Shown here: piece after piece, positions 14,704 to 35,784 of the stretch
Position numbering within the stretch: the first letter of the stretch is position 1
Layout: the number at the start of each line of letters is the position of its first letter
NCBI GenBank assembly: GCA_001784875.1
Contig: MFSH01000006.1
Location: 1-60,556, forward strand
From: Candidatus Moranbacteria bacterium RIFOXYB1_FULL_43_19
GTDB taxonomy: Bacteria; Patescibacteriota; Minisyncoccia; Moranbacterales; UBA11712
Direction of reading: 5' to 3'
DNA: 60,556 nucleotides
Notes under the pieces: generated by a model
What the model saw: the letters and a program-made list of their open reading frames with translations, nothing else
Databases searched by the model: none
What the model was told of the DNA's origin: nothing
Made by a program: the position numbers and the translations under genes

Positions 14704-14763
14704 AAAGCTCGGCTTTTTCCTCCCTCCCTTCGCGAAGGGAGGGATTCCTCAAAGCCAAGCTTT
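14704..14763. repeat. Nested palindromic element
   Basis: AAAGCTCGGCTTT (14704-16) and AAAGCCAAGCTTT (14751-63) are inverted (12/13); they flank the perfect palindrome TCCCTCCCTTCGCGAAGGGAGGGA (14721-44). Confidence 0.75.
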
Positions 14764-16625
14764 TAGTTTCGTTTAAAAACCGAAATGTAATTTGAACTAT
14801 ATATCTTGGAAAAATCCGGATATTGTTCGAAACTGTTTCCTTCGAGTTGAGCGTTCAGGACGACGTAATTCACTCCTGTTTCTGAAAAGCACAGTCTTCC
14901 CTGGTCGCTTTCGGGCTCCATGATCATGTCCCTCGTGCAGATTTCCCGAGGTTTTGTCGGATCAACATAGCGTGACAAATTCCCGCGGCTCAAAGGATAT
15001 CTATAGTCTTTCATAAAAAACAACTTGTACCAGGAATCGGCGTATATGTTCACATGGTCCTTGAGCACCACGTCCTTCGCGGTGTCCAACCTGTCGGCCA
15101 AATACTGGGCGGAATGAAAGGTCTGGATGGCTTCCTGAAACTGCGGCCGGGTCTTGAATGCTTCGGCGCTGTCAGCCATTCCATCCGTGATCACAAAAAA
15201 CAGCAGAACGAAAAGGAGGACGGAAGAAAAAAAGACAGTCGAACTCTTTTTGAAAAGCCTCAAAAATTCAACCAGGCCAAAAGCGGCAAGCAGAGAAAGC
15301 GGAAGATACAGATAATTCCCGATCCGGTCGCTGGGAATATTGACATAGAGCCACCCCGGCTTCGCGCTCATGAGGAGCAATACGGCTGCCCAGGCGAGAG
15401 CGAAGCTGAATTGGTAATCTTTCCTATTAAAAACCCAAAAAAGCAATGCGAACCCCAAAGCGCCAAGAATTAGCCTCGCGCTTCCGGCATTTGCCTCTAT
15501 CTGATTGAAGCTTAGTCCGACTCTGGTTATTTTTGACGGCTCGCCGGTGGCCTGGCTGACAGCCGAAGGGTTGAAATAAGAGGGAGTAAATATAAGTAAA
15601 AAGTAAAAAGTTAAAAGAAAAAGGATGACTATCGGGAAAGGCTTTAAAAATATTTTCAGCCAATCGCCCATGATTTTGAAAGCCCGCTCAAAATTGAGCC
15701 CGAGATGGAGCAAAATAATCGCGGCGATTGAATAAAGCAAAATAAAACTTGAAAGATGGTGGGTATATAGAAGTCCGACACTCGAAAAAATAAAAAGGCT
15801 GGCAAAGACTGAATCTTTTTCTGAAAGCGCCCGATACAAAAAGTACAAAACAACCGGAATGAGCATGTTGCCGATGATATTTCCGACTACGCCGCCGCTA
15901 ACATACTTTGCTTGAGGGGCATTTATCGCGTATAAAACTCCGGTGACAAAAAAAGCCATGGCTGCTATTTTCGGGCTTTTGAAAATCCTTCCAGCGAGTA
16001 TTGACAGAGCAAATATCCCGACGATATTGAAAAAAAGCAAAACAAGGGCCGGCATCGCCCCTAAAATCGCCGCGCCGCTCAAAAGATTGAAAACCGAAAA
16101 AACCATATGTTCGCCGATAATAAAGTCCGGCATTCCGTAGTCAGGAAGCTGGCCGCTGTCAACAATTGCCTGACTCCAATACATATGGTGGCCCAGATCA
16201 GTGGAAGAGGGAATGATCGTATCCGAAAGATAAGTTGTTCGAATGAAAATCGCGAGAAATAGCGAGATCAGGATGAAAATTGCCTGCCAATAAGAAAAAT
16301 TAAAGAAATCATGCAATACTTCTTTTTTTCCGGCCTCTTTTTTTTCTTTTCCGGTGAAGCGAAATTGAAAAATTATATATCCGATAATCGAAAAAATGAG
16401 AATTGATCCAACGAGAACCGGTCCGCTCAAAAAAATATGCATCCGGTTGAGAAGCAAAACCAGAAAATCAACCGAAATCAAGCTCATAGGAACAGTGAGA
16501 ACTGCTTTTTCGAAAAAAGAAATTTTTGAATTTCTCCAGCCAAAAACAGCCAGTAAAAGACAGAATCCTGGGAGCACAAGCACGAAAGGAAAAGTCAAAA
16601 TGAGTTTTAGCAGATCTAAAATCAT
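14763..16625 (-). CDS. Multi-pass membrane protein, GT-C-like (DUF6541/DUF2206-like)
   Basis: 620 aa, more than 12 TM; VLPG...S.FEK N-terminus, luminal PSSTDLGHH, YTHHLS, C-terminal soluble domain. Confidence 0.7.
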   Translation of the reverse strand: MILDLLKLILTFPFVLVLPGFCLLLAVFGWRNSKISFFEKAVLTVPMSLISVDFLVLLLNRMHIFLSGPVLVGSILIFSIIGYIIFQFRFTGKEKKEAGKKEVLHDFFNFSYWQAIFILISLFLAIFIRTTYLSDTIIPSSTDLGHHMYWSQAIVDSGQLPDYGMPDFIIGEHMVFSVFNLLSGAAILGAMPALVLLFFNIVGIFALSILAGRIFKSPKIAAMAFFVTGVLYAINAPQAKYVSGGVVGNIIGNMLIPVVLYFLYRALSEKDSVFASLFIFSSVGLLYTHHLSSFILLYSIAAIILLHLGLNFERAFKIMGDWLKIFLKPFPIVILFLLTFYFLLIFTPSYFNPSAVSQATGEPSKITRVGLSFNQIEANAGSARLILGALGFALLFWVFNRKDYQFSFALAWAAVLLLMSAKPGWLYVNIPSDRIGNYLYLPLSLLAAFGLVEFLRLFKKSSTVFFSSVLLFVLLFFVITDGMADSAEAFKTRPQFQEAIQTFHSAQYLADRLDTAKDVVLKDHVNIYADSWYKLFFMKDYRYPLSRGNLSRYVDPTKPREICTRDMIMEPESDQGRLCFSETGVNYVVLNAQLEGNSFEQYPDFSKIYSSNYISVFKRN

Positions 16626-16626
16626 A

Positions 16627-17733
16627 CTAGGTTTTTTCTATGACTTCTAAATATCTTCTTGCAATCTTATCCCAACTATAATTCTCAAGCGTAAATTGGC
16701 TGGCTTTTTCTCCGAATTTTTTTCGGAAATCATCATCAGACAAGATTTTTTTTATTTTTTTTTCCCAGATATCCGCTTTTTCCGGCTCGAGAAGAAATCC
16801 GTTTTGTCCATCTTTTACTGCGTCCCGAAGCCCCTCAAGATCAGCCGCCAAAACAACTCTTCTGCAAGCGGCCGCCTCAATAGCAGTTATACCGAATCCT
16901 TCCAGAGACCCATGAACTTTTATGTTCGGGGAAATGTATAAATCGCACACATTGAAAAGAATCTTCATTTGCGGCCTTGGCAGGTTGAGCATCAGCTTCA
17001 CTCGATTTCGCATTCCCAGATCTTTGACCGCTTTTTCGCATTTCGGATAATAGTTTTCATCCCCCGCGGTTTTCCTCGCGATTCCGCCGCCCGCCGCGAC
17101 CAATAAATAATTTTCCGGAAGTTTCGTCATCACATTTCGAATAAACCATTCCACGCCCTTATGCTTTGTGAATCTTCCGCCCCTGAAAATCACTTTTTTA
17201 CCGCCAAGGTCAATTCCGAGTAGCTTCTCCAGGTCTTTTCCATTATCTTTGGAAATTATTTCATTCATGTCGAACCCATTGGGCACGAATTCGCATTTTT
17301 CTTCCGGAATTCCCAATTTTTGCGCTTCAGCAATCGTTTCTCTTCCGACCATGATCAAACGGTCAAGTTTTTTGAGAGATGGTATATTGACACTCCTGTA
17401 TACTTTTCCAAGAAATGATTTTTTATGTGCAAAAGTAATGTCCAAGCCATGCACTATAGAAATATATTTTTTCTTTCGGAAAAAAGTTTTCCAAAGAACT
17501 GCAAGGGGAGACAGAATGCCGTCACCAATGAGAACAACGTCATATTTTGGAATGACAAAAAAGGATTTCAGTGCAACCCAGGGCAAAAAAAACGGCAGAT
17601 TTTTTTTCCCAAGTTTATTGGCGATTATTCTCGTCGGGGTGATTTCGGAGAGGGCATGAGCAATGCCATAGTTCTGATTCTCGATGCCTCCCAAAACCGG
17701 CGGGTAAGCCCGGGAAATAAAGAGTATTTTCAT
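16627..17733 (-). CDS. Glycosyltransferase family 4
   Basis: YPPVLGGIE, VHGLD, VPNG, EGFGITAIEAAAC. Confidence 0.92.
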   Translation of the reverse strand: MKILFISRAYPPVLGGIENQNYGIAHALSEITPTRIIANKLGKKNLPFFLPWVALKSFFVIPKYDVVLIGDGILSPLAVLWKTFFRKKKYISIVHGLDITFAHKKSFLGKVYRSVNIPSLKKLDRLIMVGRETIAEAQKLGIPEEKCEFVPNGFDMNEIISKDNGKDLEKLLGIDLGGKKVIFRGGRFTKHKGVEWFIRNVMTKLPENYLLVAAGGGIARKTAGDENYYPKCEKAVKDLGMRNRVKLMLNLPRPQMKILFNVCDLYISPNIKVHGSLEGFGITAIEAAACRRVVLAADLEGLRDAVKDGQNGFLLEPEKADIWEKKIKKILSDDDFRKKFGEKASQFTLENYSWDKIARRYLEVIEKT

Positions 17734-17788
17734 AAAAAAGCCACAAAATTACTATACCACAGCCAGCCAAAAAAATCGAGCTTTCTAT

Positions 17789-17817
17789 TTGCCTTGGAAC
17801 TGCATTTATCGTATGAT
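17789..17817 (+). promoter_or_regulatory. Putative sigma70 promoter (near-leaderless) for GT4 at 17827
   Basis: TTGCCT-17 nt-TATGAT; ATG 9 nt downstream of the -10 box. Confidence 0.55.
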
Positions 17818-17826
17818 AATAGCAGC

Positions 17827-18954
17827 ATGAAAATCGGCATAAACGCCTCATTTTTGAGGAAAATCGACACTGGCATCGGCCAGGTGACACAAGGATTTGT
17901 CCAGGAGCTTGCAAAATCCCATTCGAAAAAGAACGAGTATTTTTTGTATCTCGAAAAAGACATCAACTTGAATCTCCCTAAAAATTTCCAAAAGCGCGTT
18001 TTTCTGCCGTTGCTTTGGCGGCGCGACGATTTGATTCGAAAAGTATGGTGGGAGAAAATTCTCTTGCCGCGACGCGCCAAAAAAGACGGATGTGATGTTT
18101 TTGTCTCGCTTTATCAATGCCCGACTTTTTTTCCGAAAAATATACGGCACAAAATGCTCGTCCATGACCTTATTCCGAAAGTTTTTCCGGAATATCTTGA
18201 TAACTGGCGCAAAAAAATATATTTCTTTTTTTCGAATCAGGCTGTTCGGAGCGCCGACAAAGTATTTACTGTTTCTGAATGGTCGAAAAAGGACATTCAC
18301 AAATATCTCAAGGTGCCGAATAAAAAGATAGAAGTAGTTCACCCAAGCGTCGGGGAGAATTTTTTCGAAAGAGCGAGCCACGAAAAAGATAACTCGGTTT
18401 TGGAAAAATATGGAATTTTTGGTCGCTATATTTTTTACGTCGGCGGATTCGACTTCCGGAAAAATGTTTCCGCACTCTTGAAGGCATATCGAAGGTTGAT
18501 TGAAAGATACGAGATAAACGACGTAAGCCTGGTTCTGGGAGGGGAAGACAAATCACGGTTCAGCCCTCTTTTCACCGATATAAAAAAGGAAATTGAGATA
18601 CTCGGGCTTGAAAAAAAAATAAAATTGACTGGTTTTATCGCGCAAAAAGATCTGCCGGCTTTTTATCGCCAGTGCGAACTTTTTGTCCTGCCAGCTTTGT
18701 ATGAGGGTTTCGGGCTTATGGCTCTTGAGGCAATGGCATCCGGCACGCCAGCGGTTGTTTCAAAAACTTCTTCTCTTCCCGAAGTCGGCGGCGACGCGGT
18801 TCTTTATTTCAATCCCTATGACGAAGAAGAGATGTCCCGGGTGATGGGAAAAATTCTGCAAAACGACAAATTGAAAAGGGCTTTGTCCGAGCGCGGAAAG
18901 AAAAGGGCCCAAAAATTCAGCTGGAAAAAATTCGTGGAAATAATTTTGAAATAA
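17827..18954 (+). CDS. Glycosyltransferase family 4 (mannosyltransferase-like)
   Basis: MKIGINASFL, VHDLIP, RKNV, YEGFGLMALEAMASGTP; true start at 17827 within ORF 17425..18954. Confidence 0.92.
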   Translation: MKIGINASFLRKIDTGIGQVTQGFVQELAKSHSKKNEYFLYLEKDINLNLPKNFQKRVFLPLLWRRDDLIRKVWWEKILLPRRAKKDGCDVFVSLYQCPTFFPKNIRHKMLVHDLIPKVFPEYLDNWRKKIYFFFSNQAVRSADKVFTVSEWSKKDIHKYLKVPNKKIEVVHPSVGENFFERASHEKDNSVLEKYGIFGRYIFYVGGFDFRKNVSALLKAYRRLIERYEINDVSLVLGGEDKSRFSPLFTDIKKEIEILGLEKKIKLTGFIAQKDLPAFYRQCELFVLPALYEGFGLMALEAMASGTPAVVSKTSSLPEVGGDAVLYFNPYDEEEMSRVMGKILQNDKLKRALSERGKKRAQKFSWKKFVEIILK

Positions 18955-19037
18955 TTTTCACTACAATTAGTTGTAGTATGCAATTTCAAAAATTTATTCC
19001 AATTAACATTCACTACGATATATCGTGGTGAGAAAAA

Positions 19038-20720
19038 ATGTCTATCTATAACAATCCAGGAAATATTATAAAAAATATTTTCAAAAGAGAACTCACCTGG
19101 GTTTGGGTTTTTGGTTTTGTCTTGAGTCTGGCTGCTGTGGCTCTTTCTGCAAAAAATAAACTGCCTCTCGGGAAAGGGGATTTTGTTTTTCTTGCTCTGG
19201 TGACTTTGCTTGTGGCGCTCTACCGTCCCCGCTGGATATTTTTTCTTTTCGTGGGAAGCATTTCTCTCGAAAACATAATTTTGACCGGCGGTTTTCTCCC
19301 GATTCAATTGCGGCTCTATCAGTTTTTCGGAGGAATATTGATTCTGGCTTTGGCTATTCTATTTGCCTCCAAACGGCTTAGTTTCAAACTGCTCAAACCA
19401 ATTTGGATCGATTGGCTTGTTTTTTCGCTGATTCCTTTCAGCTTCCTGGCTCTGATGGCCGCTCCGAACAAATCTGCCAGCCTTAAAAATAATTTCGTTT
19501 TAATTTCTTTTGTCGCCCTATATTATCTTTCCCGCAATTTCATGAGAAGCCGGAAGGATTTTGCCAAAACAGCCGCTTTTTTGACAATTTCTTTTTTGGC
19601 AACAACTTTATTCGGCTTTTGGCAGGTTTTCGCCGATAAATTCGGTGCCAAATCTCTTGAGGTGATGTTTGGGCGGCCAAATTCCACTTTTACGGAACCA
19701 GATTGGCTGGGGCTATATTTGTGCTTCGCGCTGGCCGTTTTTCTTTCGTTGATGTTTTATATCCTCCAGACAAAGAAAAAGGCATTCGTTTCAAAAAAAT
19801 CTTCCGCCTTGATTTTGGATATTTTGATTTTTCTCGACGTGACATTGATTGTTCTGACACTTTCCCGCTCGGCTTGGATTGGAGCGGCCGCCGTTTTCAC
19901 TTTTTACTTCCTTGCGCTTGTGCCATCGCAAAAATATATTTCCGCCAGAAAATATGCTGCGGGCTGGAGAGGATTTTTGAGAGAAGCGGCAATAATATTT
20001 TCGATTGTTGTTATCTCTCTGGCAACAGTTCATTTTGGAAAACTTTCGAAGTTTGATCTAAGCGACCGGGCGCGTTCAGCGGCTACCAGCGAACAAAAAA
20101 TCACAATCGCCTGCGAAAATAGTACGAGTATTTTGCAAACAGTTTCCAACACGGACGAACTGAAAAAATTCAATTGCCGGCATATCAATCTCGAGGAAAT
20201 TAATTTCTATAAATCGCAGGGAAAAGTCGTCACTGAAATTTTCCGGAAAGACCCGAATGTGATGACTCGAAGCGCGATTTATCAAAAAAGCTGGGAGATT
20301 CTCAAAATTCATCCAATCACGGGAGTCGGCTTTGGATCAATCACGCAAAATCTGGGAGCTGACGAGCGGGGAGCGGGGCTCAATGAGAGCAACGTTTTCC
20401 TTCAGGTCTGGGCGGGAAGCGGAATCTTTGGACTTATAGCTTTCGTTGTGGCAATTGGATATTTATTTGTTTACGCGTTTCGACGTGTATCTCCAGTCTG
20501 CCCAATGAATAAATTTTTTGGCTGTCCGATTATAAAGGATGATTTTGAAAAAATTTTATCTGTTTTCGCGGTCTTAGGCATTTCAGCCTTGATAATTCCA
20601 AATCTTTTCAACGCGGGGCTATTCATGGGAATTTTTTGGCTTGGATTGGCGGTTGTTGTAAATATTCGTGATTTTATTGAGGTCGAACCTCGCTCGGGCA
20701 AGGTGTTAGATATAATTTAG
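19038..20720 (+). CDS. O-antigen ligase / Wzy-like membrane protein
   Basis: Many TMs; RPNSTFTEPDWLG, LTLSRSAWIG, R..IYQKSWEI..HPITGVGFG, ESNVFLQ. Confidence 0.82.
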   Translation: MSIYNNPGNIIKNIFKRELTWVWVFGFVLSLAAVALSAKNKLPLGKGDFVFLALVTLLVALYRPRWIFFLFVGSISLENIILTGGFLPIQLRLYQFFGGILILALAILFASKRLSFKLLKPIWIDWLVFSLIPFSFLALMAAPNKSASLKNNFVLISFVALYYLSRNFMRSRKDFAKTAAFLTISFLATTLFGFWQVFADKFGAKSLEVMFGRPNSTFTEPDWLGLYLCFALAVFLSLMFYILQTKKKAFVSKKSSALILDILIFLDVTLIVLTLSRSAWIGAAAVFTFYFLALVPSQKYISARKYAAGWRGFLREAAIIFSIVVISLATVHFGKLSKFDLSDRARSAATSEQKITIACENSTSILQTVSNTDELKKFNCRHINLEEINFYKSQGKVVTEIFRKDPNVMTRSAIYQKSWEILKIHPITGVGFGSITQNLGADERGAGLNESNVFLQVWAGSGIFGLIAFVVAIGYLFVYAFRRVSPVCPMNKFFGCPIIKDDFEKILSVFAVLGISALIIPNLFNAGLFMGIFWLGLAVVVNIRDFIEVEPRSGKVLDII

Positions 20721-20771
20721 CTTGTCGGCAATATTTTTTGTTATTAATCGGCCGTAGCGAGGTTCGACCTC
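20679..20771. mobile_element. 93-bp element with perfect 16-bp inverted termini overlapping the end of the ligase gene
   Basis: GAGGTCGAACCTCGCT (20679-94) and AGCGAGGTTCGACCTC (20756-71). Confidence 0.8.
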
Positions 20772-20779
20772 TCAATTTT

Positions 20780-21913: not shown

Positions 21914-21921
21914 TTCAGCAC

Positions 21922-22361: not shown

Positions 22362-25037
22362 ATGTCTGAGTTTGATGAAGAAATTCTGGAAATGGTTACC
22401 AGAATAATCCCGGAAGAAGATCCCGAAGAAGACCTCGGGATACCGTTTTTTCCTGTTGAACCATCTAGGGAAGATTTTCCGGAAAACGAAGAGCTGCAAT
22501 CTGGCGAAGGGATTGACCCTTTTTCGGCCAAATTCAATGATCCGGTTCGGCTATATCTCAGGGATATGGCAACCTTTCAAGTTCTTACCCGCGAAGGAGA
22601 AATTGGGATTGCTCAACGGATCGAAGCCGGAGAAAAAGATGTGTTTCTTGCTCTTTTGGAAATTCCCTACACCGCCAAAGTAATTGCCGGTCTTCTCCAC
22701 GTGTTTGAGTTGGAACCGGAACAGGAAAAACCGAATCCGGAAGAATATTCCATTGATTTTTTCGGGAATGGAGTTGTTCCAGAACAAAACCAACTCACTC
22801 AAAAGAAAAGAATGCTGGGTTTTATCCGGAACTTTCTCCTAAAAGACGACAAAGTCCAACAATTGGAAAAGAACCTTGCTTCCTTTCCGGAAAAGAGCGA
22901 GATGCGCGGCCGAATCCAACTGAAAATTGTAAGCCTTCGCCGCCACATGGCCGATCTTCTCAACGCTTTGCATTTTGATCTCTTGGATATGGATCCGGCC
23001 CTGAGTGTATTGCGCCAGTCAGCATCCCGGCTTCGTGATCTAAACCGAAAAATGAGCCGCGCTCTGGCTCCGTTCGGCTTTTCGGTGACCAGATTCCGCG
23101 AGCTTGTCAGGAAAGCCAACAAAGACGAAAATTCATTTCTTCATTTAAAAATGAATCCGGAACAATTGGCGGAACTAGTTGGGATGCAAAAAGAAATCCG
23201 CAAAGAATCATACGGAATTGAGCAAAAAATCGGTTTAACCGGCCCTCGACTCTTGGCTGCTATGGACCGGCTGGAAAAAGCCGATCGGGAGATCCAAAAG
23301 GCAAAACGGGATATGGTCCAAGCCAACCTCCGGCTTGTCGTGAGTATCGCGAAAAAATATACTCACCGGGGTTTGCAATTTTTGGATCTTATTCAGGAAG
23401 GCAATACAGGTCTCATGAAATCTGCGGGAAAGTTTGAATATAAACGCGGCTACAAATTTTCGACCTATGCGACCTGGTGGATCCGCCAGGCCATCACCCG
23501 GGCGATTGCCGACCAAGCGCGGACTATCCGCATCCCGGTTCATATGATCGAATCCATCAACAAGATCCTTCGCACGTCCCGCTACCTGGTTCAGGAACTG
23601 GGGCGCGAACCTACCCCGGAGGAAATTGCGGCTAAAATGGAGATGCCTTTGGGAAAGATCCTCAAAGGCCTCTGTATTGCCAAAGAGCCGTTCTCTCTTG
23701 AAACGCCCATCGGTGACGATGGCGACGACTTTTTGGGAAATTTCATTGAGGATAAAATAATTCCCACTCCCTTTAAAGCCGTAAGTGACATCAATTTAGC
23801 GGATCAAATCCGCAAGACGCTCACTGCCTTAAGCCCTCGCGAGGAAAAGGTTGTCCGCAAAAGGTTTGGCATCGGCGAAAAGCATGATCAAACATTGGAA
23901 GAAATCGGCCAAGAATTTGAGGTGACCCGGGAACGCATACGCCAAATCGAGGCAAAGGGATTGCAGAAGTTGCGGCATCCGTCCCGAGCAAAACGCTTGG
24001 GGGGCTTCACTGAAGATTGCGGAAAAGAAAAAAAACGGTACAATGCCGGAAATCCTCCTCCCTCACCGGTGCTTGCTGACCCTGAACCGGTTCCCAAAAT
24101 CATCTTCAACCCAAACCATTGGAGCCCGAAAGAAGTAGAAGATGATTCGCCTCCGGAGTTCTTCAAAATCTCTGAAATTCCTGAATCTCGACCCAAAAGT
24201 CCGCTGTCTTCAAAAACGCCGACCAAAGCGGGTTTCGGTAATCCTGGACCAAGGGTTTTCCCTCCGGAAAACTTGCCCCGAATTTTTGAGATCGTTCTTT
24301 CGCCGATCCAATGGGAAATAGTCCGCCGTTTCTTCAACGGTGGAGCGGAGAAACTCGAGTGTTCAGAGATCGGCTGTCTGGAATCCGTGCGAAAGCTGAA
24401 TAGCGGATTTTCGATGCAGCCAAGCCGAGTGGCAAGAATAAAGGACAGGGCCCTGAATATCCTGGCAACTTTTGTCGGGCATTCGCTGCCCGATAGTTTG
24501 TATGTCTGGGACACATGGCTGCATAATCTCGTTCTTGCGATTGAGAGGCGTAAATCGGCTCTGCGTCTTGGACTCGAAACGACACTATGTCTGACCGAAT
24601 TTTTCAAACCCGTTGCAATCAACGACGGGGATCGCCGCATATCCAAAACCAAAAAACCGGAAAGGTACGAAGAAACTGCAAATATGATTATCGCACGCGT
24701 GCCGCCGGAAGGATCTCAAGGTATCGGCGAAAACAGGCAGCTCGTGATTTTCAGGGATAGGAAAGCATTAATTCTTTATCCTGAACTTGCCGAGGCTATT
24801 CGTATCCGGCTGAAAAAAGGAGGTAAAAACCTTCAGAAAAATAGCGTCAGTCCGGAAATCGCCAAGATTATCACAGGTCTCAAGCCTTCTGATATGAAAC
24901 TGCTCAAGCTACTTGGCATAGACCAGTTGAAAGTTGGAAAGGCAACGAGCCATCAGCTTAATGTAACGCCCCTAGTTCTCATTTCGATGGTGGAGGAACT
25001 TATCGAAAAGATAACCGGCCTGTCTTCAGGCTCTTGA
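22362..25037 (+). CDS. RpoD-like group-1 sigma factor with a C-terminal extension of about 340 aa
   Basis: DPVRLYL (region 1.2), [66 protein letters not shown]; ORF stays open to 891 aa. Confidence 0.9.
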
Positions 25038-28937: not shown

Positions 28938-28970
28938 TTCTTTTTCCTGCATTTTGATAATTTTGGATAG

Positions 28971-28995
28971 GGGTGAGTTTATCACCCTTATTTTC
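28971..28995 (+). terminator. Possible terminator hairpin after rplI
   Basis: GGGTGA-GTTTA-TCACCC then TTATTTT. Confidence 0.45.
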
Positions 28996-29006
28996 GTAAA
29001 ATGCTT

Positions 29007-29076
29007 TACGAATATGCGAATCCAAGAAAATTCGTAATTCGTATATTTGTAGAGCGAAGCGAATTCGTAATTCATA
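29007..29076. repeat. Inverted plus direct heptamer array (ATTCGTA) upstream of pyrG
   Basis: TACGAAT and TGCGAAT (reverse complement units), then ATTCGTA x2, GAGCGAAGCGA, ATTCGTA ATTCATA. Confidence 0.7.
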
Positions 29077-29086
29077 AAGAATATCC

Positions 29087-30712
29087 ATGAAACCGAAATA
29101 CATTTTTGTCGTAGGGGGAGTAATGAGCGGAGTCGGAAAAGGAACCACGACGGCTTCGATCGGAAATATTCTTCAATCCAAAGGATACCGTATTACAGCC
29201 ATGAAAATTGACCCGTACCTCAATGTTGACGCAGGCACGATGAATCCGACCGAGCACGGAGAAGTTTTTGTTTTGAACGACGGGATGGAAACCGACCAGG
29301 ATATGGGGCATTATGAAAGATTTATCAATCTGACCCTCCCTAACATAAACTATATGACCAACGGGATGGTCTACAAAGCCATTATCGACCGAGAGCGATC
29401 GATGGGCTATGGCGGCCGGTGCGTTGATGTCGTTCCGGATGTCCCGAGGGAAATCATCAGCCGGATTCGAAAAGCGCAACAAAAATCGAATGCAGAAATA
29501 ATGCTTATCGAAATCGGAGGGACACTTGGAGAATACCAGGGACTTCTTTTCCTTGAAGCAGGAAGGATGCTTCGCCTTGAAAACCGGGGTGACGTTCTTT
29601 TTGTCCTTGTGAGCTATCTCCCTGTTCCGCCAAAAATTGGAGAAATGAAGACTAAGCCGACGCAATACGCCGTCCGGTCTTTGAACGCTGCCGGCATCCA
29701 GCCGGATATGATTATTGCCCGGTCGGAAATAGCCCTTGACAAAAAACGCAAAGAAAAACTGGCCGACCATTGCAACTTGAAGGAAGAAGACATCATCAGC
29801 GCGCCAGATGTTGACAGCGTCTATGAAGTTCCGCTTAACTTCGAAAAAGACGAACTTAGCAAGACAATTCTTAAAAAATTAGGCCTCCGGCCTAAAAAAA
29901 AGGATCTGGTAAAATGGCGGGCCATGGTCAATAATATCAAAGCCTCGAAAAAGCCGCTTCGCATCGGGATTGTTGGAAAATATTTTGGCACAGGAGACTT
30001 TGTCCTTTCGGACGCTTATATTTCTGTCATTGAGGCCATAAAGCACGCTTGCTATTTCCACCGGCGAAAGCCAGTTGTCGACTGGCTCAATTCCGAGGAA
30101 TATGAAAAGAATCCGGCCAAAGTCCGGGAACTCAAAAAATACGCCGGCATCATTGTGCCTGGAGGATTTGGGGAGCGGGGAGTGGAGGGAAAGATCAAGG
30201 CCATTGAATTCTGTCGCAAAAACAAAATTCCCTATTTCGGCCTTTGCTACGGAATGCAGCTCCTCGTGATTGAATTCGCGCGAAATGTCTTGGGCCTCAA
30301 GGGCGCAAACACAACTGAAATAAACCGCAACACGAAATTTCCGGTGATCGATATTATGCCTGAACAGAAGAAAAATCTGGCCGACAAAAATTACGGCGCT
30401 TCGATGCGGCTGGGTTCTTATCCGGCAGCCCTCAAGAAAAATACTATCGCTTTTGACGCCTATAAAAGCCAGCTGATTTCCGAACGCCACCGCCACCGCT
30501 GGGAAGTAAATCCGGAGTATATTGAGAAAATTGAAGCCATGGGACTTGTCTTTTCCGGAAAATCTCCCGACGGACGCCTGATGGAAATCGCCGAACTGTC
30601 CAAAAAATCACACCCTTTCTTTTTAGGAACCCAGTTCCATCCTGAATTCAAATCTTCGCCAGTGATTCCTCATCCGCTTTTCAGGAATTTTATCAAAAGT
30701 GCGATAAAATAA
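29087..30712 (+). CDS. pyrG: CTP synthase
   Basis: GGVMSGVGKG, KIDPYLNVDAGTMNPTEHGEV, KTKPTQ, GLCYGMQ, QFHPEF. Confidence 0.98.
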   Translation: MKPKYIFVVGGVMSGVGKGTTTASIGNILQSKGYRITAMKIDPYLNVDAGTMNPTEHGEVFVLNDGMETDQDMGHYERFINLTLPNINYMTNGMVYKAIIDRERSMGYGGRCVDVVPDVPREIISRIRKAQQKSNAEIMLIEIGGTLGEYQGLLFLEAGRMLRLENRGDVLFVLVSYLPVPPKIGEMKTKPTQYAVRSLNAAGIQPDMIIARSEIALDKKRKEKLADHCNLKEEDIISAPDVDSVYEVPLNFEKDELSKTILKKLGLRPKKKDLVKWRAMVNNIKASKKPLRIGIVGKYFGTGDFVLSDAYISVIEAIKHACYFHRRKPVVDWLNSEEYEKNPAKVRELKKYAGIIVPGGFGERGVEGKIKAIEFCRKNKIPYFGLCYGMQLLVIEFARNVLGLKGANTTEINRNTKFPVIDIMPEQKKNLADKNYGASMRLGSYPAALKKNTIAFDAYKSQLISERHRHRWEVNPEYIEKIEAMGLVFSGKSPDGRLMEIAELSKKSHPFFLGTQFHPEFKSSPVIPHPLFRNFIKSAIK

Positions 30713-30763
30713 ATTCAGGGGAGGTTTGCAGTTCGTTTCCAACAAAATTTGCGGAGGGCAATC

Positions 30764-31192
30764 ATGATAGCAATTCACAAAAAAAAGGCCCGCAACTGTG
30801 GGAAATGCGATACTGTCAAAAACCTGACGCTACACCATATTTTGCCGAAAAGATGGTTTCAGAACAGCTTGAAAATAACCCTATGCCGGCATTGTCATGA
30901 CAAGCTGGAAGTGCTTATTCACGAAAAAGAAAGAGTGAACAGAGGCACACTTTCTGTTTGTGAATATTTCAACCTGGCTATCGGCTTTGTTCTTGTCGAA
31001 ACCCGTGACTTGGAAAATGAGCCGCTGATTCTAGACAGCTATACTCTCGTTCTTGACAATCCGGAAAGCGTCAAAAGAAAAAACGGTCAACTGACCATTT
31101 TTCTCAAGAAATCCATTGACTATCTTTCTGATTTAAACATCAGCAATGTCTGCTTTTTTCAGGATATACTTTTTATTTGTGAAAACATTTGA
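30764..31192 (+). CDS. HNH-endonuclease-like protein with C-terminal extension
   Basis: CGKC...LTLHHILP...ITLCRHCHDKLE; SD GGAGG 6 nt before ATG 30764. Confidence 0.7.
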   Translation: MIAIHKKKARNCGKCDTVKNLTLHHILPKRWFQNSLKITLCRHCHDKLEVLIHEKERVNRGTLSVCEYFNLAIGFVLVETRDLENEPLILDSYTLVLDNPESVKRKNGQLTIFLKKSIDYLSDLNISNVCFFQDILFICENI

Positions 31193-31225
31193 CGCCACCG
31201 CCAAAAACGGTGGCGCAACTTTTTT
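31193..31225 (+). terminator. Intrinsic terminator after the HNH gene
   Basis: CGCCACCG-CCAAAAA-CGGTGGCG then CAACTTTTTT. Confidence 0.7.
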
Positions 31226-31285
31226 ATTAAGAATAGTCAAAAATATAATACAATTTAATAAGAAGTTCTTAAAATCGCGATAAAA

Positions 31286-31314
31286 TAAAAAGCTCCAGGC
31301 CTGAAGACCTGGAG
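31286..31314 (-). terminator. Intrinsic terminator of the 31769 gene
   Basis: Minus strand CTCCAGG-TCTTCAGG-CCTGGAG then CTTTTTATTTT. Confidence 0.65.
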
Positions 31315-31331
31315 AGATACAGTTTGTATTT

Positions 31332-31769
31332 TTAGGCTTCGATAACAATGTTATTGCAATTGCCTAACAATACAGGAGCCGGGGATGATAATACGGCTAC
31401 CCTGAAATGCCGGTAAAGGACCACTATAGTGTCATATGACACTTGATGCCTTGCAATGCGTTGGTCCTCGTTTCCGTTGTATTCCCAGACCGTTACCCAA
31501 CATCCAAGATTAGGGTCATAATTTGAATCATCTTTTCCCTTGGCGATCAAAACGGCCGGGACAAAAAACGTTTTCACATATTCCGAGTGATCCGGGCAGA
31601 TATGGAATTTGTTTTCTTCCAAAACCACGTCTCCCCGCCGTGCCTCCTTGACTTTAGGATGAACACCGAAAACGATTTCCAGGCTATTGTTCCTCAAATT
31701 CTCCTTCCACGGCCCGAAGTGACATCCAATAATATCGCATACCTTATGAGGAATTTGTATTGTGGCCAC
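31332..31769 (-). CDS. Hypothetical protein with a possible zinc site
   Basis: GTG start with SD AAGGAGGAG; CDIIGC...HICPDH motif; 145 aa. Confidence 0.7.
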   Translation of the reverse strand: MATIQIPHKVCDIIGCHFGPWKENLRNNSLEIVFGVHPKVKEARRGDVVLEENKFHICPDHSEYVKTFFVPAVLIAKGKDDSNYDPNLGCWVTVWEYNGNEDQRIARHQVSYDTIVVLYRHFRVAVLSSPAPVLLGNCNNIVIEA

Positions 31770-31813
31770 TTCCTGTCTCCTCCTTAGGAAATATAAATCT
31801 TTGAAGCAAAATA

Positions 31814-32086
31814 TCACTCCACATTCACAAACTGCGCTCTTTCGAGTTTTCCCGTGAATTTGCGGATTTTTTTGGCAGTGAATTTCACGACTCCATCGGC
31901 CATGGCAAAAAGCGTGTCATCGCTGCCGCGTTTCACGTTTTTTCCCGCCCGAAATTTCGTCCCGCGCTGGCGGATGATAATATTCCCAGTTTTTACTTTT
32001 TCTCCGCCGAATTTTTTGACGCCGAGCCGTTTTGAGATTGAATCGCGGCCCAGTTGAGTCGAACCACCGGCTTTTCTGTGTGCCAT
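31814..32086 (-). CDS. rpmA: 50S ribosomal protein L27
   Basis: [28 protein letters not shown]. Confidence 0.98.
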
Positions 32087-32125
32087 AGAAGAAATCTAAA
32101 TCTAAAATCGAAAATTTTTAAACTT

Positions 32126-32154
32126 TTGAAGACTATTGGATTTTATATTATAAT
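32126..32154 (+). promoter_or_regulatory. Putative leaderless sigma70 promoter
   Basis: TTGAAG-17 nt-TATAAT; ATG at 32162 lies 7 nt after the -10 box. Confidence 0.6.
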
Positions 32155-32161
32155 ATGGCAA

Positions 32162-32632
32162 ATGTCAACCTTCGAGGAAATATACAACAAAAAATTGCCT
32201 TTGAAACCTGCGCCTCCGCGAAGAATAAAGTCTTTTTGGCTTAAGTATGGGGAAAAAATCATTCTTGCCTTCGGCATAATCTTGATTGCGCTGGTTTCTT
32301 TTGAAGCCGGATATCTCAAAGGCCAGAAAAACAATGAAGAACCGATCGAAATCAAACAACCGGCTTGCGCGCCTTGTCCGAAGACTGCTGAAAAAGCAAA
32401 TGCTAATTCTGCCAGCAGCAATTCCCAGCAAAATTATCAGGATAAAACCGGCAATCAGCCCAATGCCGAAAATCAAAAATGTTCTTTCGTGGCCAGCAAA
32501 AATTCGAACAAATATCACCTCGCAACCTGCCAATGGGCGGAAAGAATAAAACCGGAAAATAAAATATGTTTTTCCTCTGAAGAAGAGGCGGAGAGCAGGG
32601 GATACCAGGGCGCCAAATGCTGTATCAAATAA
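32162..32632 (+). CDS. Membrane-anchored protein with a C-terminal Ada-type metal-binding domain
   Basis: TM helix LAFGIILIALVSFEAGY; FVASKNSNKYHLATC.WAERIKPENKICFSSEEEAESRGY. Confidence 0.8.
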   Translation: MSTFEEIYNKKLPLKPAPPRRIKSFWLKYGEKIILAFGIILIALVSFEAGYLKGQKNNEEPIEIKQPACAPCPKTAEKANANSASSNSQQNYQDKTGNQPNAENQKCSFVASKNSNKYHLATCQWAERIKPENKICFSSEEEAESRGYQGAKCCIK

Positions 32633-32644
32633 GGCTTGAAAGGG

Positions 32645-33151
32645 CTAATCTCCCAAATCTTCCTTGTGAAGCAGATGGATATTTTTTCGATTTCCCTTGA
32701 AGTTCAGAAAAAACAGCAAAAGAAAATAGGCGGCTAGCGCGGCAATCCCGGCCGCAAGAAAATACCCGCACGCCAGAGGAAGCGTGAGATCAAAAAAAAC
32801 GGACTTTGTAAAAAAACTTTTTATGCCAAGCCGATAAGTATCCTCAAAGCAGGTCTTCATGTCCTGGTAATCTACTCCGAAAATCGCGCCCCCGATGAAC
32901 GCCGCCGGAGCGAAAAACAAAAAATTTGTCCAGATATTCATCACACCGGCGACAGCCAGCGCGGCTAAACGGTTGAAACGAAGAATGCTCGAAATGACAA
33001 GCGTGGCTAGAAAACCCATTCCCGGGACGACACCCAGAAATATGCCCAGCGCCGCACCCGCCGCGATCTTGTGCGGCGTGTCATCAATCAAAAAAAATCG
33101 TTTCAAAAAATATTTTACTTTATCCTTGAAATAATTCACAGAGACTGCCAT
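32645..33151 (-). CDS. DUF2062 family membrane protein
   Basis: DDTPHKIAAGAALGIFLGVVP, RFNRLAA...NIWT. Confidence 0.88.
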   Translation of the reverse strand: MAVSVNYFKDKVKYFLKRFFLIDDTPHKIAAGAALGIFLGVVPGMGFLATLVISSILRFNRLAALAVAGVMNIWTNFLFFAPAAFIGGAIFGVDYQDMKTCFEDTYRLGIKSFFTKSVFFDLTLPLACGYFLAAGIAALAAYFLLLFFLNFKGNRKNIHLLHKEDLGD

Positions 33152-33184
33152 TGCTAAATCTTGCTATCGCAAAAATTAGCAATA

Positions 33185-34336
33185 TTATGACTTTTTAATA
33201 AAAAAACTCTTGCTTTCTTTGTCTACGATTTTCGCTTTTTCAGCTTCCTTGCGCGTTTTAAATGGCAAAACGCCGAGAATATTTTTCAAGGCGATGCCGT
33301 CAATCTTGAGCACGTCTTCCCATTTGTCCAGCGGCTCTAAAATCGCGCGCAGTTTTTCTTTGTCGTATTTATAAGCCTTTCGAAGCGTCCGCAAAATTCG
33401 CCCGGCATCGGAAAAAACCTGTTCCACGTTCTCCTGGTCCATATAGCCGGATAATATCTCCTGCAGCTCTCCGATGCGATCCGTTTTTGATTTCACTTCG
33501 TCCTTAAGCGAAATATACTCTTCAATAATCTTTTCCGTATCGATATCTTTTTTCGCTTTATCTTTGAATTTGTGTTTCCACATCGGGCAGATATTCTGGT
33601 ATCCGCACCAGTCGCAAAGCCCGGAAATCTGCGGTTCAAACTTTGATTGGCTTATTTGATTGATGAGGTCGAGCATTAATTCTTCGCTTTTCTTTACCTC
33701 GTCAAGTGTCCTTTGCGAGGTGAGTTTCACTCCGTGCTTGAGATAATAGAGGCTGACTTTTATTTTTCCAAGATTGTCAATTTCTTTCGGATAGCGCTTG
33801 AGAAATCCCGCGAGATATATCGAAAGCTGGAGATCGTTGTCCACTTTTTCCTGGCTCGGCAGCTTGCGGGTGGTTTTATAATCAATAATTTCGTATCCGT
33901 CTTCAGTTTTATCTATCCTATCAATTATGCCACTTACTATGTGATTTTCTTTTTTTACCCCGTGGTCCGACTTGTCGGACTTTACGGAGCCTATTTCGAC
34001 CTGAAAACGGGATTCAAGATCTATGATGTTTGTCTTTGCTGGATCATTTTTTTTGTAATAATCCTGAAGCATGGAAACTCCCTGCGCGAAGGCCGATCGC
34101 TCTTCCGTTTCATCCGCAAAAACCTCGGCGTTCCAATTTTTGGAAAAAAAATCAAGCGCCTGCTCGAGAGTTGGAGAAAGAATACCCGGCGTGTGGACAA
34201 CTTTCAAAGTGTTATGAAGAAGCGTGCCGAAAAACTGCTCTTTTGATTTCGGAGTTTTTAGGCGGTCTATTTGCTGGTATTTGTATTTCCGGGGACACGT
34301 CAGAAACGTGTCGAGGGCGGAATAGGAGGTGTTCAT
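33185..34336 (-). CDS. PD-(D/E)XK nuclease (AddB/RexB C-terminal-like, 4 Cys)
   Basis: SYSALDTFLTCP, GTLLH, GIIDRID, IIDYKT, QLSIY, CDWCGYQNICP; start taken at MNTSYS (34336). Confidence 0.88.
   Translation of the reverse strand: MNTSYSALDTFLTCPRKYKYQQIDRLKTPKSKEQFFGTLLHNTLKVVHTPGILSPTLEQALDFFSKNWNAEVFADETEERSAFAQGVSMLQDYYKKNDPAKTNIIDLESRFQVEIGSVKSDKSDHGVKKENHIVSGIIDRIDKTEDGYEIIDYKTTRKLPSQEKVDNDLQLSIYLAGFLKRYPKEIDNLGKIKVSLYYLKHGVKLTSQRTLDEVKKSEELMLDLINQISQSKFEPQISGLCDWCGYQNICPMWKHKFKDKAKKDIDTEKIIEEYISLKDEVKSKTDRIGELQEILSGYMDQENVEQVFSDAGRILRTLRKAYKYDKEKLRAILEPLDKWEDVLKIDGIALKNILGVLPFKTRKEAEKAKIVDKESKSFFIKKS
33960..33987. repeat. In-frame palindrome within the nuclease gene
   Basis: CCGT-G-GTCCGAC-TT-GTCGGAC-TTT-ACGG; encodes VKSDKSDHG. 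Confidence 0.55.
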
Positions 34337-34342
34337 GTTGGC

Positions 34343-34407
34343 TTGAAGGTTCGACATTGAGGAATTTTCCGACGAATAGTCGGAAAAGGGAAAGGTCGAA
34401 CCTTGAA
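34343..34407. repeat. Nested palindromic element upstream of the nuclease gene
   Basis: TTGAAGGTTCGACATT vs AAGGTCGAACCTTGAA (14/16 inverted), flanking TTTTCCGAC-GAATA-GTCGGAAAA. Confidence 0.75.
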
Positions 34408-34473
34408 ATTCAAGATTCAAAATTTACCAGTGCCTAATACGCATCTTAACCGCCTTTCCTTCCTTCCGCAAGC

Positions 34474-34482
34474 TGGTATAAT
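34474..34482 (+). promoter_or_regulatory. Extended -10 promoter upstream of the methyltransferase
   Basis: TGGTATAAT (TGn-TATAAT). Confidence 0.45.
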
Positions 34483-34609
34483 GAAAGAAATCAGCCTGTT
34501 TGAAATACCGCCCTTGCGCGAATAGTGATATAGTGATAATATATTGCCAAACAAGTATTTGAAAGATGGCAGCGCAACGAGAAAGAGTGCAGGAGCAAGA
34601 AATAAATTT

Positions 34610-35740
34610 ATGGCGACCAAATCATCGAACAAAAATTTGCACAAGGCGAGCCTTGCCAAGAAAGACGAGTTTTACACTCAACTTGACGATATTGAGAAAG
34701 AGCTAAAACACTACAAAGATCAATTTCGGGGCAAGGTTGTTTATTGCAATTGCGATGATCCGTTTGAGAGCAATTTTTTTAAGTATTTTGCTTCCAATTT
34801 CAACGCGTTAAAGCTAAAAAAACTTATCGCCACAAGCTATGTCAAGTCGCCGATTGTTGGTGGCCAATTGTCTTTATTTGAAATGGAAGGATTGAAGCCG
34901 GAAGGCAAGGAGCCGTTCAAAATCGAAATTAGCGAGGTGTCGGACGTTAATTCTGATGGTGCGGTTGGCCTCACAGATATCGAGTGGTTGCTTCGACATG
35001 ATGCCAATGTCTCGTCGTCCCTCAAGGATGGCGGCGATTTCCGCAGCCAGGAATGTATTGAGCTACTCAAAGAAGCTGATATAGTCGTAACTAATCCGCC
35101 ATTCTCTCTGTTTCGGGAGTATCTCACACAACTCATTGAATACAACAAAAAATTTTTGATTATTGGTAACGTAAATGCAATTACTTATAGAGAGTGTTTC
35201 AAGCTTATAAAAGATAATAAAATGTGGCTCGGGGCAAGCATTCATAGTGGCGATCGAGAGTTTCGAGTGCCCGACAGTTATCCGCTTAATGCGGCAGGGT
35301 TTAGAGTTGATGAAAATGGCAATAAATACATTCGTGTCAAAGGCGTACGTTGGTTCACAAATTTAGACTACAAGGAGCGTCACGAAGAGTTGACCTTGTA
35401 TAAAAATTACAATCCTGAAGAATATCCAAAATATGAGAATTATGATGCAATTAATGTCAATAAGGTTTTAGAAATTCCGAAGGATTATAATGGTATTATT
35501 GGTGTACCAATTACCTTTCTCGATAAATATAATCCGGAACAATTCGAGATTATTGGTTTAGGTATATCTAATTCGGGAAAAGAAATTGGGGTTAAGCCAT
35601 ATAAAGAAGAGCATAAAAAATATAGAAAAGAAATTCAAAAAAGAGGTGCCGTTGATGGTGATTTATATATGATTACAAAAGGAATAGTTGATGTTCCCTA
35701 TGCGAGAGTTATTATAAAAAATAAGAAAGCAAAAAAATAA
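34610..35740 (+). CDS. Adenine-specific DNA methyltransferase, EcoRI family
   Basis: KKDEFYTQL, VYCNCDDPFESNF, GDFRSQEC, VVTNPPFSLFREY (motif IV NPPF), WFTNLD, YARVIIK. Confidence 0.92.
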   Translation: MATKSSNKNLHKASLAKKDEFYTQLDDIEKELKHYKDQFRGKVVYCNCDDPFESNFFKYFASNFNALKLKKLIATSYVKSPIVGGQLSLFEMEGLKPEGKEPFKIEISEVSDVNSDGAVGLTDIEWLLRHDANVSSSLKDGGDFRSQECIELLKEADIVVTNPPFSLFREYLTQLIEYNKKFLIIGNVNAITYRECFKLIKDNKMWLGASIHSGDREFRVPDSYPLNAAGFRVDENGNKYIRVKGVRWFTNLDYKERHEELTLYKNYNPEEYPKYENYDAINVNKVLEIPKDYNGIIGVPITFLDKYNPEQFEIIGLGISNSGKEIGVKPYKEEHKKYRKEIQKRGAVDGDLYMITKGIVDVPYARVIIKNKKAKK

Positions 35741-35761
35741 ATTAGGAAAAATGTATAGACT

Positions 35762-35784
35762 TTCCTAAAGTCGAACTTTAGGAA
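35762..35784. repeat. Perfect palindrome at the MTase-rhuM junction
   Basis: TTCCTAAAGT-CGA-ACTTTAGGAA; same GT-CGA-AC core as the 20679 and 34392 repeats. Confidence 0.75.

Follow-up and report, generated by a model that had tools for sequence, protein, structure and literature searches.

Two members of a Patescibacteria REP family inside protein genes of a Moranbacteria contig, and a probably separate set of intergenic hairpins

The DNA analysed here, called the window, is the whole of positions 1 to 60,556 of contig MFSH01000006.1 (60,556 nucleotides, nt; assembly GCA_001784875.1) from Candidatus Moranbacteria bacterium RIFOXYB1_FULL_43_19. It has a G+C content of 43% and carries, as is typical for the ultra-small Patescibacteria, housekeeping and cell-envelope genes, among them fmt, def, priA, folD, RtcB, rpoD, CTP synthase, L9, gltX, IscS/NifU and many glycosyltransferases; for two of its proteins, the nearest homologues carry the label Candidatus Moranbacteria. 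No tRNA gene was found in it, and no Rfam 15 family reached its gathering score anywhere along its length. Dispersed through the window are short palindromes that a first reading of the letters, hereafter the original prediction, had brought together as one active family of repetitive extragenic palindromes (REPs), with singlets at 10875, 35762 and 51805 and three inverted doublets of the type called REPINs (REP doublets forming hairpins). REP singlets and REPIN doublets are spread by REP-associated tyrosine transposases (RAYTs) of the IS200/IS605 family. We consider it likely, with a probability of about 0.75, that two different things were merged in this family: REP copies that have a RAYT-like partner, and a separate set of intergenic hairpins.

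The REP copies are the following:

10875 to 10901, minus strand: REP copy 1, inside the thymidylate kinase gene (tmk, 10644-11222, minus strand)
51805 to 51831, minus strand: REP copy 2, inside a GT2 glycosyltransferase gene (50992-51984, minus strand)

These two sites are identical 27-mers and constitute the longest exact repeat in the window. Each consists of a perfect 23-nt palindrome, ACTTGGAAG-TTCGG-CTTCCAAGT (10875-10897 in copy 1), plus 4 nt, and the DNA of copy 1 is predicted to fold at -9.0 kcal/mol (z = -8.5). Both copies are translated in the same reading frame into N-YLEAELPS, at amino acids (aa) 142-150 of the long Tmk open reading frame (ORF) and at aa 52-60 of the GT2 ORF, and the Pfam Tmk and GT2 domains span copy 1 and copy 2, respectively. 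As read from the sequence, the 23-mer contains no stop codon in any of the six frames. The extragenic location expected of REP elements is not seen here: both true copies in the window lie in frame within Pfam-supported genes.

The family had initially been delimited by a 13-mer core with a CGA or TCG loop, and the hairpins cited for it are all present at their coordinates. When the degenerate core RRRGYCGARCYYY was compared with a composition-matched null in the window, it proved to be over-represented, with 7 matches against 0.58 expected and none of 100 shuffles attaining 7. All seven matches have complementary arms, even though the pattern imposes no such condition, and of the 8 occurrences of GTCGAAC in the window, 4 are in stems of 5 bp or more (0.125 expected). 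Three points weigh against a motif above chance: the pattern was drawn up post hoc, the excess of hairpins with stems of 7 bp or more in the window is modest (70 versus 48 +/- 7.5 expected), and CGA (n = 4) and TCG (n = 3) are not the most frequent triloops among perfect hairpins with a 5-bp stem and a 3-nt loop. These same points would favour the view that unrelated short hairpins were brought together in the motif family by chance, which we find hardly credible in the face of the shuffling result, of the exact 27-nt repeat and of the recurrence of the pattern outside the window; for 10875 and 51805, such a reading is effectively refuted. Recurrence was seen in 892 kb of other loci, a set that had been chosen for REP presence: they hold 63 matches to the 13-mer pattern (about 4 expected), 42 of which are the apex of full REPs and 8-9 of which are headless GAAGC-CGA-GCTTC hairpins abutting a REP. 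Since the matches are mostly of these two kinds, the hairpin tips that had been noticed are typical of this element population. Among the hairpins of those loci with stems of at least 7 bp, CGA/TCG is the top triloop (25 of 263, against a trinucleotide background of 2.8%). As a defining feature of the family, the CGA/TCG loop was nevertheless dropped, since it is not the top triloop in the window. Avoidance of TCGA was ruled out as a cause of the prominence of the motif (0.95 of expectation); the tetranucleotides that are rarer than expected in the whole window are GTAC (0.49 of expectation), TTAA (0.60) and CTAG (0.63). The claim of a single motif family thus holds for its over-represented core RRRGYCGARCYYY but not for its membership, which mixes two REP copies with one-off intergenic hairpins.

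Beyond the window, the REP palindrome is widely dispersed. A scan of genomes (one per species) with the 21-nt REP core gave 10 genome loci, against a chance expectation of about 0.3. They belong to Nomura-, Giovannoni- and Kaiserbacteria, Minisyncoccia and other Patescibacteria metagenome-assembled genomes (MAGs), and some of these copies are tandem or abutting inverted doublets. The exact 21-mer also occurs on two contigs (L002 and L004; CAZQWS01) of a MAG labelled Bdellovibrionales, with 48-49% G+C, which reflects either a binning error or the presence of the element outside Patescibacteria. That the 21-mer is an adapter or assembly artefact was ruled out: ORFs and Pfam domains run on in frame on both sides of it, it is associated with one phylum and it lies on both sides of a transposase gene. 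Scanning metagenomes with ACTTGGAAG-N5-CTTCCAAGT then returned at least 154 copies in at least 120 loci (L015-L134), and the counts that follow refer to the copies listed.

Loops vary freely among these copies, mostly in the form C-NNN-G (TTC/GAA 30, TTA/TAA 24, TCG/CGA 21), showing that the conserved part is the stem and not the CGA/TCG loop; in place of the proposed core of GY...RC around such a loop, it is the stem ACTTGGAAG that is fixed. The general form of the family is an ACTTRG head, a few variable stem pairs, a free loop and a CYAAGT tail. Its commonest apex, GCGAAGC/GCTTCGC, is found in 30 of the 154 copies listed; as a DNA mini-hairpin, d(GCGAAGC) is known to be exceptionally stable, a property that would suit a substrate of single-stranded DNA. 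Open frames of at least 150 aa contain 55% of the copies, versus 73% of random positions in the same loci, and all three reading frames are used (LGSxxSK 39 times, LExxLPS 34 times and TWKxxFQV 11 times). In Moranbacteria loci, the REP copies are intragenic in six cases out of six. Their density is about 37 per Mb, as estimated from 162 kb of unbiased syntenic loci; in known systems, REP copy number is typically above 100 per genome.

A candidate partner gene was found with these repeats. In ten metagenome loci, at least 3 REP copies stand at recurrent spacing around an ORF of 208-231 aa with the motifs YHIYNRG, NPNHYHF, GTGYTKYFN, SGSLFQGRFK and YLLHLSAYVNLN (including YVNLN). This protein matches the Pfam family Y1_Tnp (PF01797, IS200-like transposase) above the gathering score, and H78 and H80 (the HUH motif), Q118 and Y138 are invariant in an alignment of 16 sequences. 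The top Foldseek match of its AlphaFold model (pLDDT 84.8) is 4er8_A (E = 6e-7), the E. coli REP-associated tyrosine transposase bound to a REP hairpin, and the next ones are the ISDra2 and IS608 TnpA. The RAYT-like family comprises 2402 homologues at E <= 1e-10; those with names come from Taylor-, Yanofsky- and Paceibacterota and from the 'Patescibacteria group', and some are labelled RayT by JGI.

The association between gene and repeat was also tested independently, on four RAYT loci obtained by protein similarity alone. All four genes were bracketed within 0-17 nt by perfect ACTTRG...CYAAGT palindromes, the inner stems of which differ by lineage (ACTTAGTGG, ACTTGGGTGC, ACTTGGAAG and ACTTAGGGAC). 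A REP was found upstream of every RAYT gene examined (21 of 21), at 0-35 nt from the start in 20 of them and at 63 nt in L042; most of these genes also have a REP at or just past the stop, and most contain one or two in-frame internal REPs, at aa ~59-64 and ~147-160. A TnpA/RAYT gene flanked by the motif, which the original prediction had proposed to look for, therefore exists in other Patescibacteria. The REPs surrounding any single RAYT have one common loop sequence, and the TTCGG-loop variant of the window flanks the RAYT of L001 and L008. Altogether, the claim of a REP-like system with its own motif and RAYT is borne out for the ACTTGGAAG...CTTCCAAGT palindrome, which flanks RAYT-like genes in other Patescibacteria, but not for the doublets and the 35762 hairpin.

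Two observations were made on the surroundings of RAYT genes. In L135 and L137 (around 10001), which come from two different genomes, the gene order is the same (gltX, M23 peptidase, RAYT, pyridine-nucleotide oxidoreductase), suggesting vertical inheritance of the RAYT rather than hopping in the manner of an insertion sequence (IS). The Paceibacterota RAYT locus L136 (12347-14226) adjoins two genes of the bAvd/23S_rRNA_IVP type and type IV secretion-like genes (PrgI, TraC-like, TraG-like).

Instead of a mobile repeat, the palindrome could also be imagined to be a sequence for DNA uptake or a site on the chromosome to which proteins bind (parS-, NBS- or matS-like) and whose presence genes tolerate. 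Patescibacteria are thought to depend on DNA uptake, the stem sequence is kept across class-level lineages and copies are frequent within coding regions, in fixed frames. We nevertheless judge this explanation very improbable, considering that copies are found as doublets, abutting or in tandem, and in groups of five within 3 kb, that the stem differs by compensated pairs between lineages (ACTTAGTGG, ACTTGGGTGC, ACTTAGGGAC) and that the placement around and inside a transposase gene is tight and invariable.

Comparing the two REP sites of the window with orthologous sites uncovered insertion polymorphism at both. Among 60 homologues of the GT2 protein, the site shows an indel of 5 aa, with a short form (NY-PE) and long forms (NYLETEFPS, NYLETNLPS or NYLEAEFPS) that are interleaved among sequences of 70-79% identity. 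Among 120 Tmk homologues, a hotspot of in-frame segments follows VNINYL and is filled by SGKNKK, ETKFPS, LDIRCPNRRHRMS, SFRRPTSK or longer ones. At the DNA level, the tmk site of relatives is occupied by different perfect palindromes at the same place:

L011: ACTTGGAAAC-TAA-GTTTCCAAGT
L012: TTTTAGACGT-CCA-ACGTCTAAAA
L013: a GGACAT...ATGTCC doublet
L014: two G+C-rich hairpins

On a 132-kb contig with synteny to the window (L139 and L140), the GT2 site (in L139) is occupied by a perfect TACTTGGAAA-ctaat-TTTCCAAGTA, and what is left at the tmk site is a decayed copy. The variant found at both sites is thus GGAAAC...GTTTCC in relatives, whereas the two window copies, identical over 27 nt, have the compensated variant GGAAG...CTTCC. 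Such a difference points to refreshment or conversion of REP copies within a genome, as far as sequence comparison can tell, rather than to independent mutation.

Other in-frame palindromes were seen in genes of the relatives. A second hotspot in their tmk genes, at aa ~45-65 (L011 8054-8078, L014 10137-10176, L012 10150-10195), contains GTAGACGTC-N-GACGTCTAC units headed by GTAG, as well as a hairpin whose stem measures 20 bp; at this place, the window has the lysine-rich, low-complexity segment CQKPKVKSQ, of which ~30 nt attract contigs of other organisms. GT4 glycosyltransferase orthologues in L012 (7053-7088) and L014 (7481-7516) contain abutting inverted doublets in frame at the same position (aa ~43-55), of the types TGGAGAT-TCG-ATCTCCA and TGGAAG-TTTCG-CTTCCA; the window orthologue (13167-14297) has none.

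Palindromes might alternatively arise in place, through fold-back or template-switch replication errors that perfect imperfect inverted repeats, without any transposase, in which case shared sequence would only reflect shared local sequence. Among the copies listed, palindromy extends past the 23-nt core into copy-specific flanks by at least 2 bp in 68 of at least 154 cases (about 10 expected) and by at least 4 bp in 25 (0.6 expected), as such a process would produce; inverted doublets are palindromes of palindromes with complementary loops, and neither tmk nor GT2 has changed in net length by 23 nt at its site. Replication errors would however leave unexplained why the same 21-23-mer is found at more than 160 unrelated sites in many lineages and why REPs keep fixed positions to either side of a Y1 transposase gene at all 21 loci examined, so that we regard this explanation as improbable.

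Several observations weigh against assigning the copies of the window to a REP/RAYT system. Concerning the repeat, no flanking bases are conserved beyond A...T, the GT[AG]G/CGTC tetranucleotide of known REPs is absent from the family and GTAG follows the hairpin in the window copies only; relative to REP-less forms, tmk is longer by 3 nt and GT2 by 15 nt, neither of which is a clean 23-nt insertion. Concerning the partner, its best NCBIfam family is indeed the REP-associated tyrosine transposase, but with a score of 30.8 that is below the cut-off of 80, and no PDB sequence was matched in single-sequence and profile searches with the RAYT. None of the named RAYT homologues carries a Moranbacteria label, and the window contains no RAYT or remnant of one, in agreement with the original prediction, according to Pfam scans of about 50 ORFs and a six-frame search with a RAYT hidden Markov model (positive controls at 1e-110). 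The sequencing runs that contain the window hold many diverse RAYT fragments, none of which is assignable to a genome. The longest contig with the identical Tmk protein measures 60,664 nt and hardly exceeds the window. Finally, the assembled contigs of four runs, in which rare variants are lost, contained only the REP-bearing tmk allele and neither a REP-less allele nor an excision joint, so that the activity claimed for the system is unproven. Taking both sides together, we conclude that the palindromes at 10875 and 51805 belong to a Patescibacteria REP family with a RAYT-like Y1 HUH tyrosine transposase as its partner.

A further palindrome resembles the REP in an approximate search:

35997 to 36019, plus strand: ACTTGTAAG-GATTT-CTTACAAGT, a perfect REP-like palindrome inside a RhuM-family gene (35796-36833)

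It is one compensated base pair away from the REP stem (fold z = -4.9) and encodes ATCKDFLQV, a native segment of conserved length among RhuM homologues. Its interpretation as an insertion was not borne out on this ground; its likeness to the REP may for the same reason be convergent, and its membership in the family is uncertain.

The remaining palindromes of the original prediction lie between genes:

14704 to 14763, minus strand: doublet 1, a 60-nt hairpin between the stop of a DUF1616-like gene (14763-16625) and the ATG (14695) of the next gene
20679 to 20771, plus strand: doublet 2, a 93-nt hairpin with 16-nt inverted arms, GAGGTCGAACCTCGCT and AGCGAGGTTCGACCTC
34343 to 34407, no strand: doublet 3, a hairpin of ~58 nt flanked by two divergently oriented genes, one for a PD-(D/E)XK nuclease (33185-34336, minus strand) and one for an EcoRI-type methylase (34544-35740, plus strand)
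35762 to 35784, plus strand: an isolated perfect hairpin, TTCCTAAAGT-CGA-ACTTTAGGAA, separating the methylase gene from the RhuM gene, the ATG of which (35796) comes 11 nt after its end

Doublet 1 is made of an outer stem, AAAGCTYGGCTTT with its inverted copy, around the perfect 24-bp palindrome that had been described at its centre (14721-14744), and folds at -20.8 kcal/mol (z = -5.5). Doublet 2 folds at -25.7 kcal/mol (z = -7.8); its left arm is at the same time the last ~14 codons of wzy (19038-20720), and 8 nt separate the end of its right arm from the ATG (20780) of the next glycosyltransferase gene. Doublet 3, with the arms GAAGGTTCGACATT and AAGGTCGAACCTT and the previously noted centre TTTTCCGAC-GAATA-GTCGGAAAA (34365-34387), folds at -18.4 kcal/mol (z = -5.8). 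The hairpin at 35762 (fold z = -4.6) resembles, in its outer stem and loop, a doublet of L013, TTCCTAACAT-CGA-ATGTTAGGAA.

Each of the three doublets folds into one long hairpin, in which two 13-mers pair mutually around a central hairpin, and the architecture of a REPIN (two inverted units and a spacer forming one long hairpin) is thus found in three doublets out of three. Their arms are however not the REP that flanks RAYT genes, they do not come in many near-identical copies as those of a REPIN would, and no RAYT was found beside these sequences or that of the 35762 hairpin. Two facts weigh particularly against including them in the REP family. The ACTTRG head is absent from the arms of the doublets and of the 35762 hairpin, the headless 13-mers including GAGGTCGAACCTC and AAAGTCGAACTTT, and each arm sequence is present a single time in the window and was absent from 850 kb of other loci, save for two apex 13-mers: AAGGTCGAACCTTG, from doublet 3, recurs in L064 as an inverted doublet inside a large ORF, and the apex of the 35762 hairpin, AAAGTCGAACTTT, recurs in L034 at 41 nt from a REP. 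The description as inverted REPIN doublets was accordingly right about the single-hairpin fold, but not about the arms, which are one-offs, imperfect on the left side of doublet 3 and with a CAA instead of a CGA loop in the second arm of doublet 1. As for the three singlets, all are real hairpins, but 10875 and 51805 are a specific 27-nt repeat and 35762 lacks the REP stem.

Two side observations concern the surroundings of doublet 3. The region 33185-37758 is a small defence-type cluster encoding a PD-(D/E)XK/Cas4-like nuclease, an EcoRI-type adenine methylase, a RhuM-family protein and a GmrSD_N (DUF262) protein. Doublet 3 lies upstream of the methylase gene and the 35762 hairpin downstream of it, and in both the plus strand reads CGA.

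What the intergenic hairpins may be was examined by comparing the same gene junctions in syntenic genomes. The junction of doublet 1 is empty in L014 (a 9-nt gap), contains TTTTTTAAGG-tttag-CCTTAAAAAA in L011, where an identical copy of this hairpin lies inside a gene, and contains inverted doublets in L012 (CCCAACATTCAATGTTAGGG, recurring after tmk in L011, L012 and L013) and in L140 (CTAGACATTCGATGTCTAG). At doublet 2, homology between Wzy and its L140 counterpart stops exactly at the start of the left arm, leaving 15 extra residues in the window protein, and the matching junction of L140 has 33 nt and no such element. Relative to syntenic relatives, the doublets and the 35762 hairpin are lineage-specific insertions at gene junctions.

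The main rival holds that the four intergenic hairpins (14704-14763, 20679-20771, 34343-34407 and 35762-35784) are structural or regulatory elements of the host at gene junctions, such as intercistronic mRNA stabilisers, attenuators or protein-binding cruciforms, that would be kept by compensatory change and not moved by a transposase. Under this explanation, which we consider unlikely but take seriously, one would expect what is seen at the junction between the DUF1616-like gene and the next gene, where four of five syntenic genomes have a strong palindrome of differing sequence and where L012 and L140 have an ACATTCRATGT core in common, with compensated outer stems. The RtcB|GT4 junction likewise has unrelated hairpins with perfect 10-bp stems in the window (13132-13157, ATTCTAGTTC-actgga-GAACTAGAAT) and in L011 (5726-5748, AATACTTCAA-tac-TTGAAGTATT), and three of the four structures end 8-11 nt ahead of a start codon. 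Against host elements stand the empty junction of L014, the hairpin copy within a gene of L011 and the overwriting of the 3' end of wzy by doublet 2. Moreover, the CCTAACATT...AATGTTAGG doublet lies at two junctions in L012 and at a third position in L011 and L013, and since it occupies several different positions it has the behaviour of a dispersed repeat. The genes on either side of doublet 3 are divergent, and no Rfam family was matched. An intrinsic terminator signature was found only as a weak match at 20759-20771, with no T-run after the other hairpins, and site counts (7 versus 9.9 expected, and 4 versus 1.7 +/- 1.4) were not clearly above shuffles; a reading of the hairpins as terminators is hence unsupported.

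Rather than host elements, the intergenic hairpins most likely come from the same hairpin-element population as the REPs, as headless REP partners or as other REPIN-like families. At the tip they are similar to the apical half of the REP (purine run-G-Y-CGA-R-C-pyrimidine run), this tip shape being all that the two groups have in common, and a link to the REP system is plausible.

By analogy with the E. coli RAYT-REP complex and with IS200/IS605 elements, we propose that a transposase encoded elsewhere in the genome of the window would bind the REP hairpin in single-stranded DNA and would cut and rejoin it through its HUH metal site and catalytic tyrosine. Mobilisation of this kind could spread or refresh REP copies, and those that survive would often be in frame, in loops of ordinary, tolerant proteins, here thymidylate kinase and GT2. 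Intergenic space is scarce and the 23-mer is free of stops in all six frames, which could explain why many surviving copies are in frame in genes. A more speculative idea, which we hold to be doubtful, is that REP/RAYT repeatedly rewrites permissive loops, always the same ones, in housekeeping proteins and in its own transposase, using the variant current in the genome, so that REPs may be in-frame, concertedly evolving coding cassettes more than a tolerated parasite. The idea comes from the identity of the window copies over 27 nt against the GGAAAC...GTTTCC variant of relatives, from the common loop sequence of the REPs around any RAYT and from the different palindrome families that occupy the same tmk loop across lineages.

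REP/RAYT systems have been studied almost wholly in Proteobacteria and a few other cultivated phyla; we found no description of one in Patescibacteria in the searchable literature, of which the large surveys did not cover this phylum. New here are the ACTTRG head motif, the short perfect palindrome and the largely in-frame intragenic copies, next to a RAYT-like family that is large (more than 2,400 homologues). A 23-mer without stops, of which about half of the copies are translated in ordinary proteins, shows how a hairpin element persists despite almost no non-coding space. For annotation, it follows that YLEAELPS, QLGSxxSK and TWKxxFQV peptides in unrelated proteins are repeat-derived, and REP and RAYT together make a simple substrate-enzyme pair for biochemical work on organisms that do not yet grow in pure culture.

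Two further ORFs of the window deserve mention. The rpoD-like ORF at 22362-25037 (plus strand) encodes 891 aa, of which sigma-70 regions 1.2-4 end at aa 539, leaving ~350 C-terminal residues without a Pfam match. The UDP-glucose/GDP-mannose dehydrogenase ORF at 54468-55283 (minus strand; 271 aa) has a partial N-terminal domain, a central domain and no C-terminal domain, and may be truncated or split.

The closest comparison is with the REP/RAYT systems of Proteobacteria (E. coli TnpA-REP, 4ER8; Pseudomonas REPINs), with which the Patescibacteria system shares a dispersed short palindrome in singlets and inverted or tandem doublets, a Y1 HUH transposase gene that is bracketed by the repeat, has HUH and Tyr motifs and finds its best fold match in 4ER8, and a RAYT in a constant gene neighbourhood (here L135 and L137). 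It differs from them in its tag, which is ACTTRG in the outer stem instead of a 5' GT[AG]G or CGTC tetranucleotide, in a palindrome that is perfect and only 23 nt long, in the location of about half of its copies within genes (all of them, and in frame, in the window and syntenic Moranbacteria loci), in its low density of about 37 per Mb and in a protein that scores below the NCBIfam RAYT cut-off. With the TnpA of IS200/IS605 elements (IS608, ISDra2), it has in common the fold, the catalytic motifs and the recognition of DNA hairpins, whereas it shows no IS structure and no tnpB, has a conserved chromosomal context and its hairpins are dispersed independently of the gene.

Rickettsia palindromic elements are, to our knowledge, roughly 100-150 bp long and without a known transposase; here, the unit is 23 nt, a RAYT partner is identified and the taxon is another one. 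Rickettsia palindromic elements (Ogata et al. 2002, cited in PMC3733652) are palindromic repeats in frame within functional protein genes of a reduced genome, and the REPs described here are alike in being in-frame palindromes in functional ORFs, at apparently tolerant positions. The GTAG/CGTC REPs of Di Nocera et al. 2013 (PMC3733652) include intragenic REPs, dimers and REPs within larger target palindromes, thereby resembling the intragenic copies, dimers and extended flank palindromy found here; their tag is another one, the phyla covered there do not include Patescibacteria and intragenic copies are exceptional there. Finally, in TnpA-Y1 subclass 2.4 of Quentin et al. 2018 (PMC6006769), which was defined on Cyanobacteria and Bacteroidetes in a survey without Patescibacteria, the tnpA-REP gene contains REP copies of its own. 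Compared by motif and trait, that subclass carries NH[IFV]H/WQ/YIxNNP where the Patescibacteria protein carries NHYH/FQ/Y[IV]NLN, and the two are alike in their in-gene REPs, which stand here at aa ~59-64 and ~147-160.

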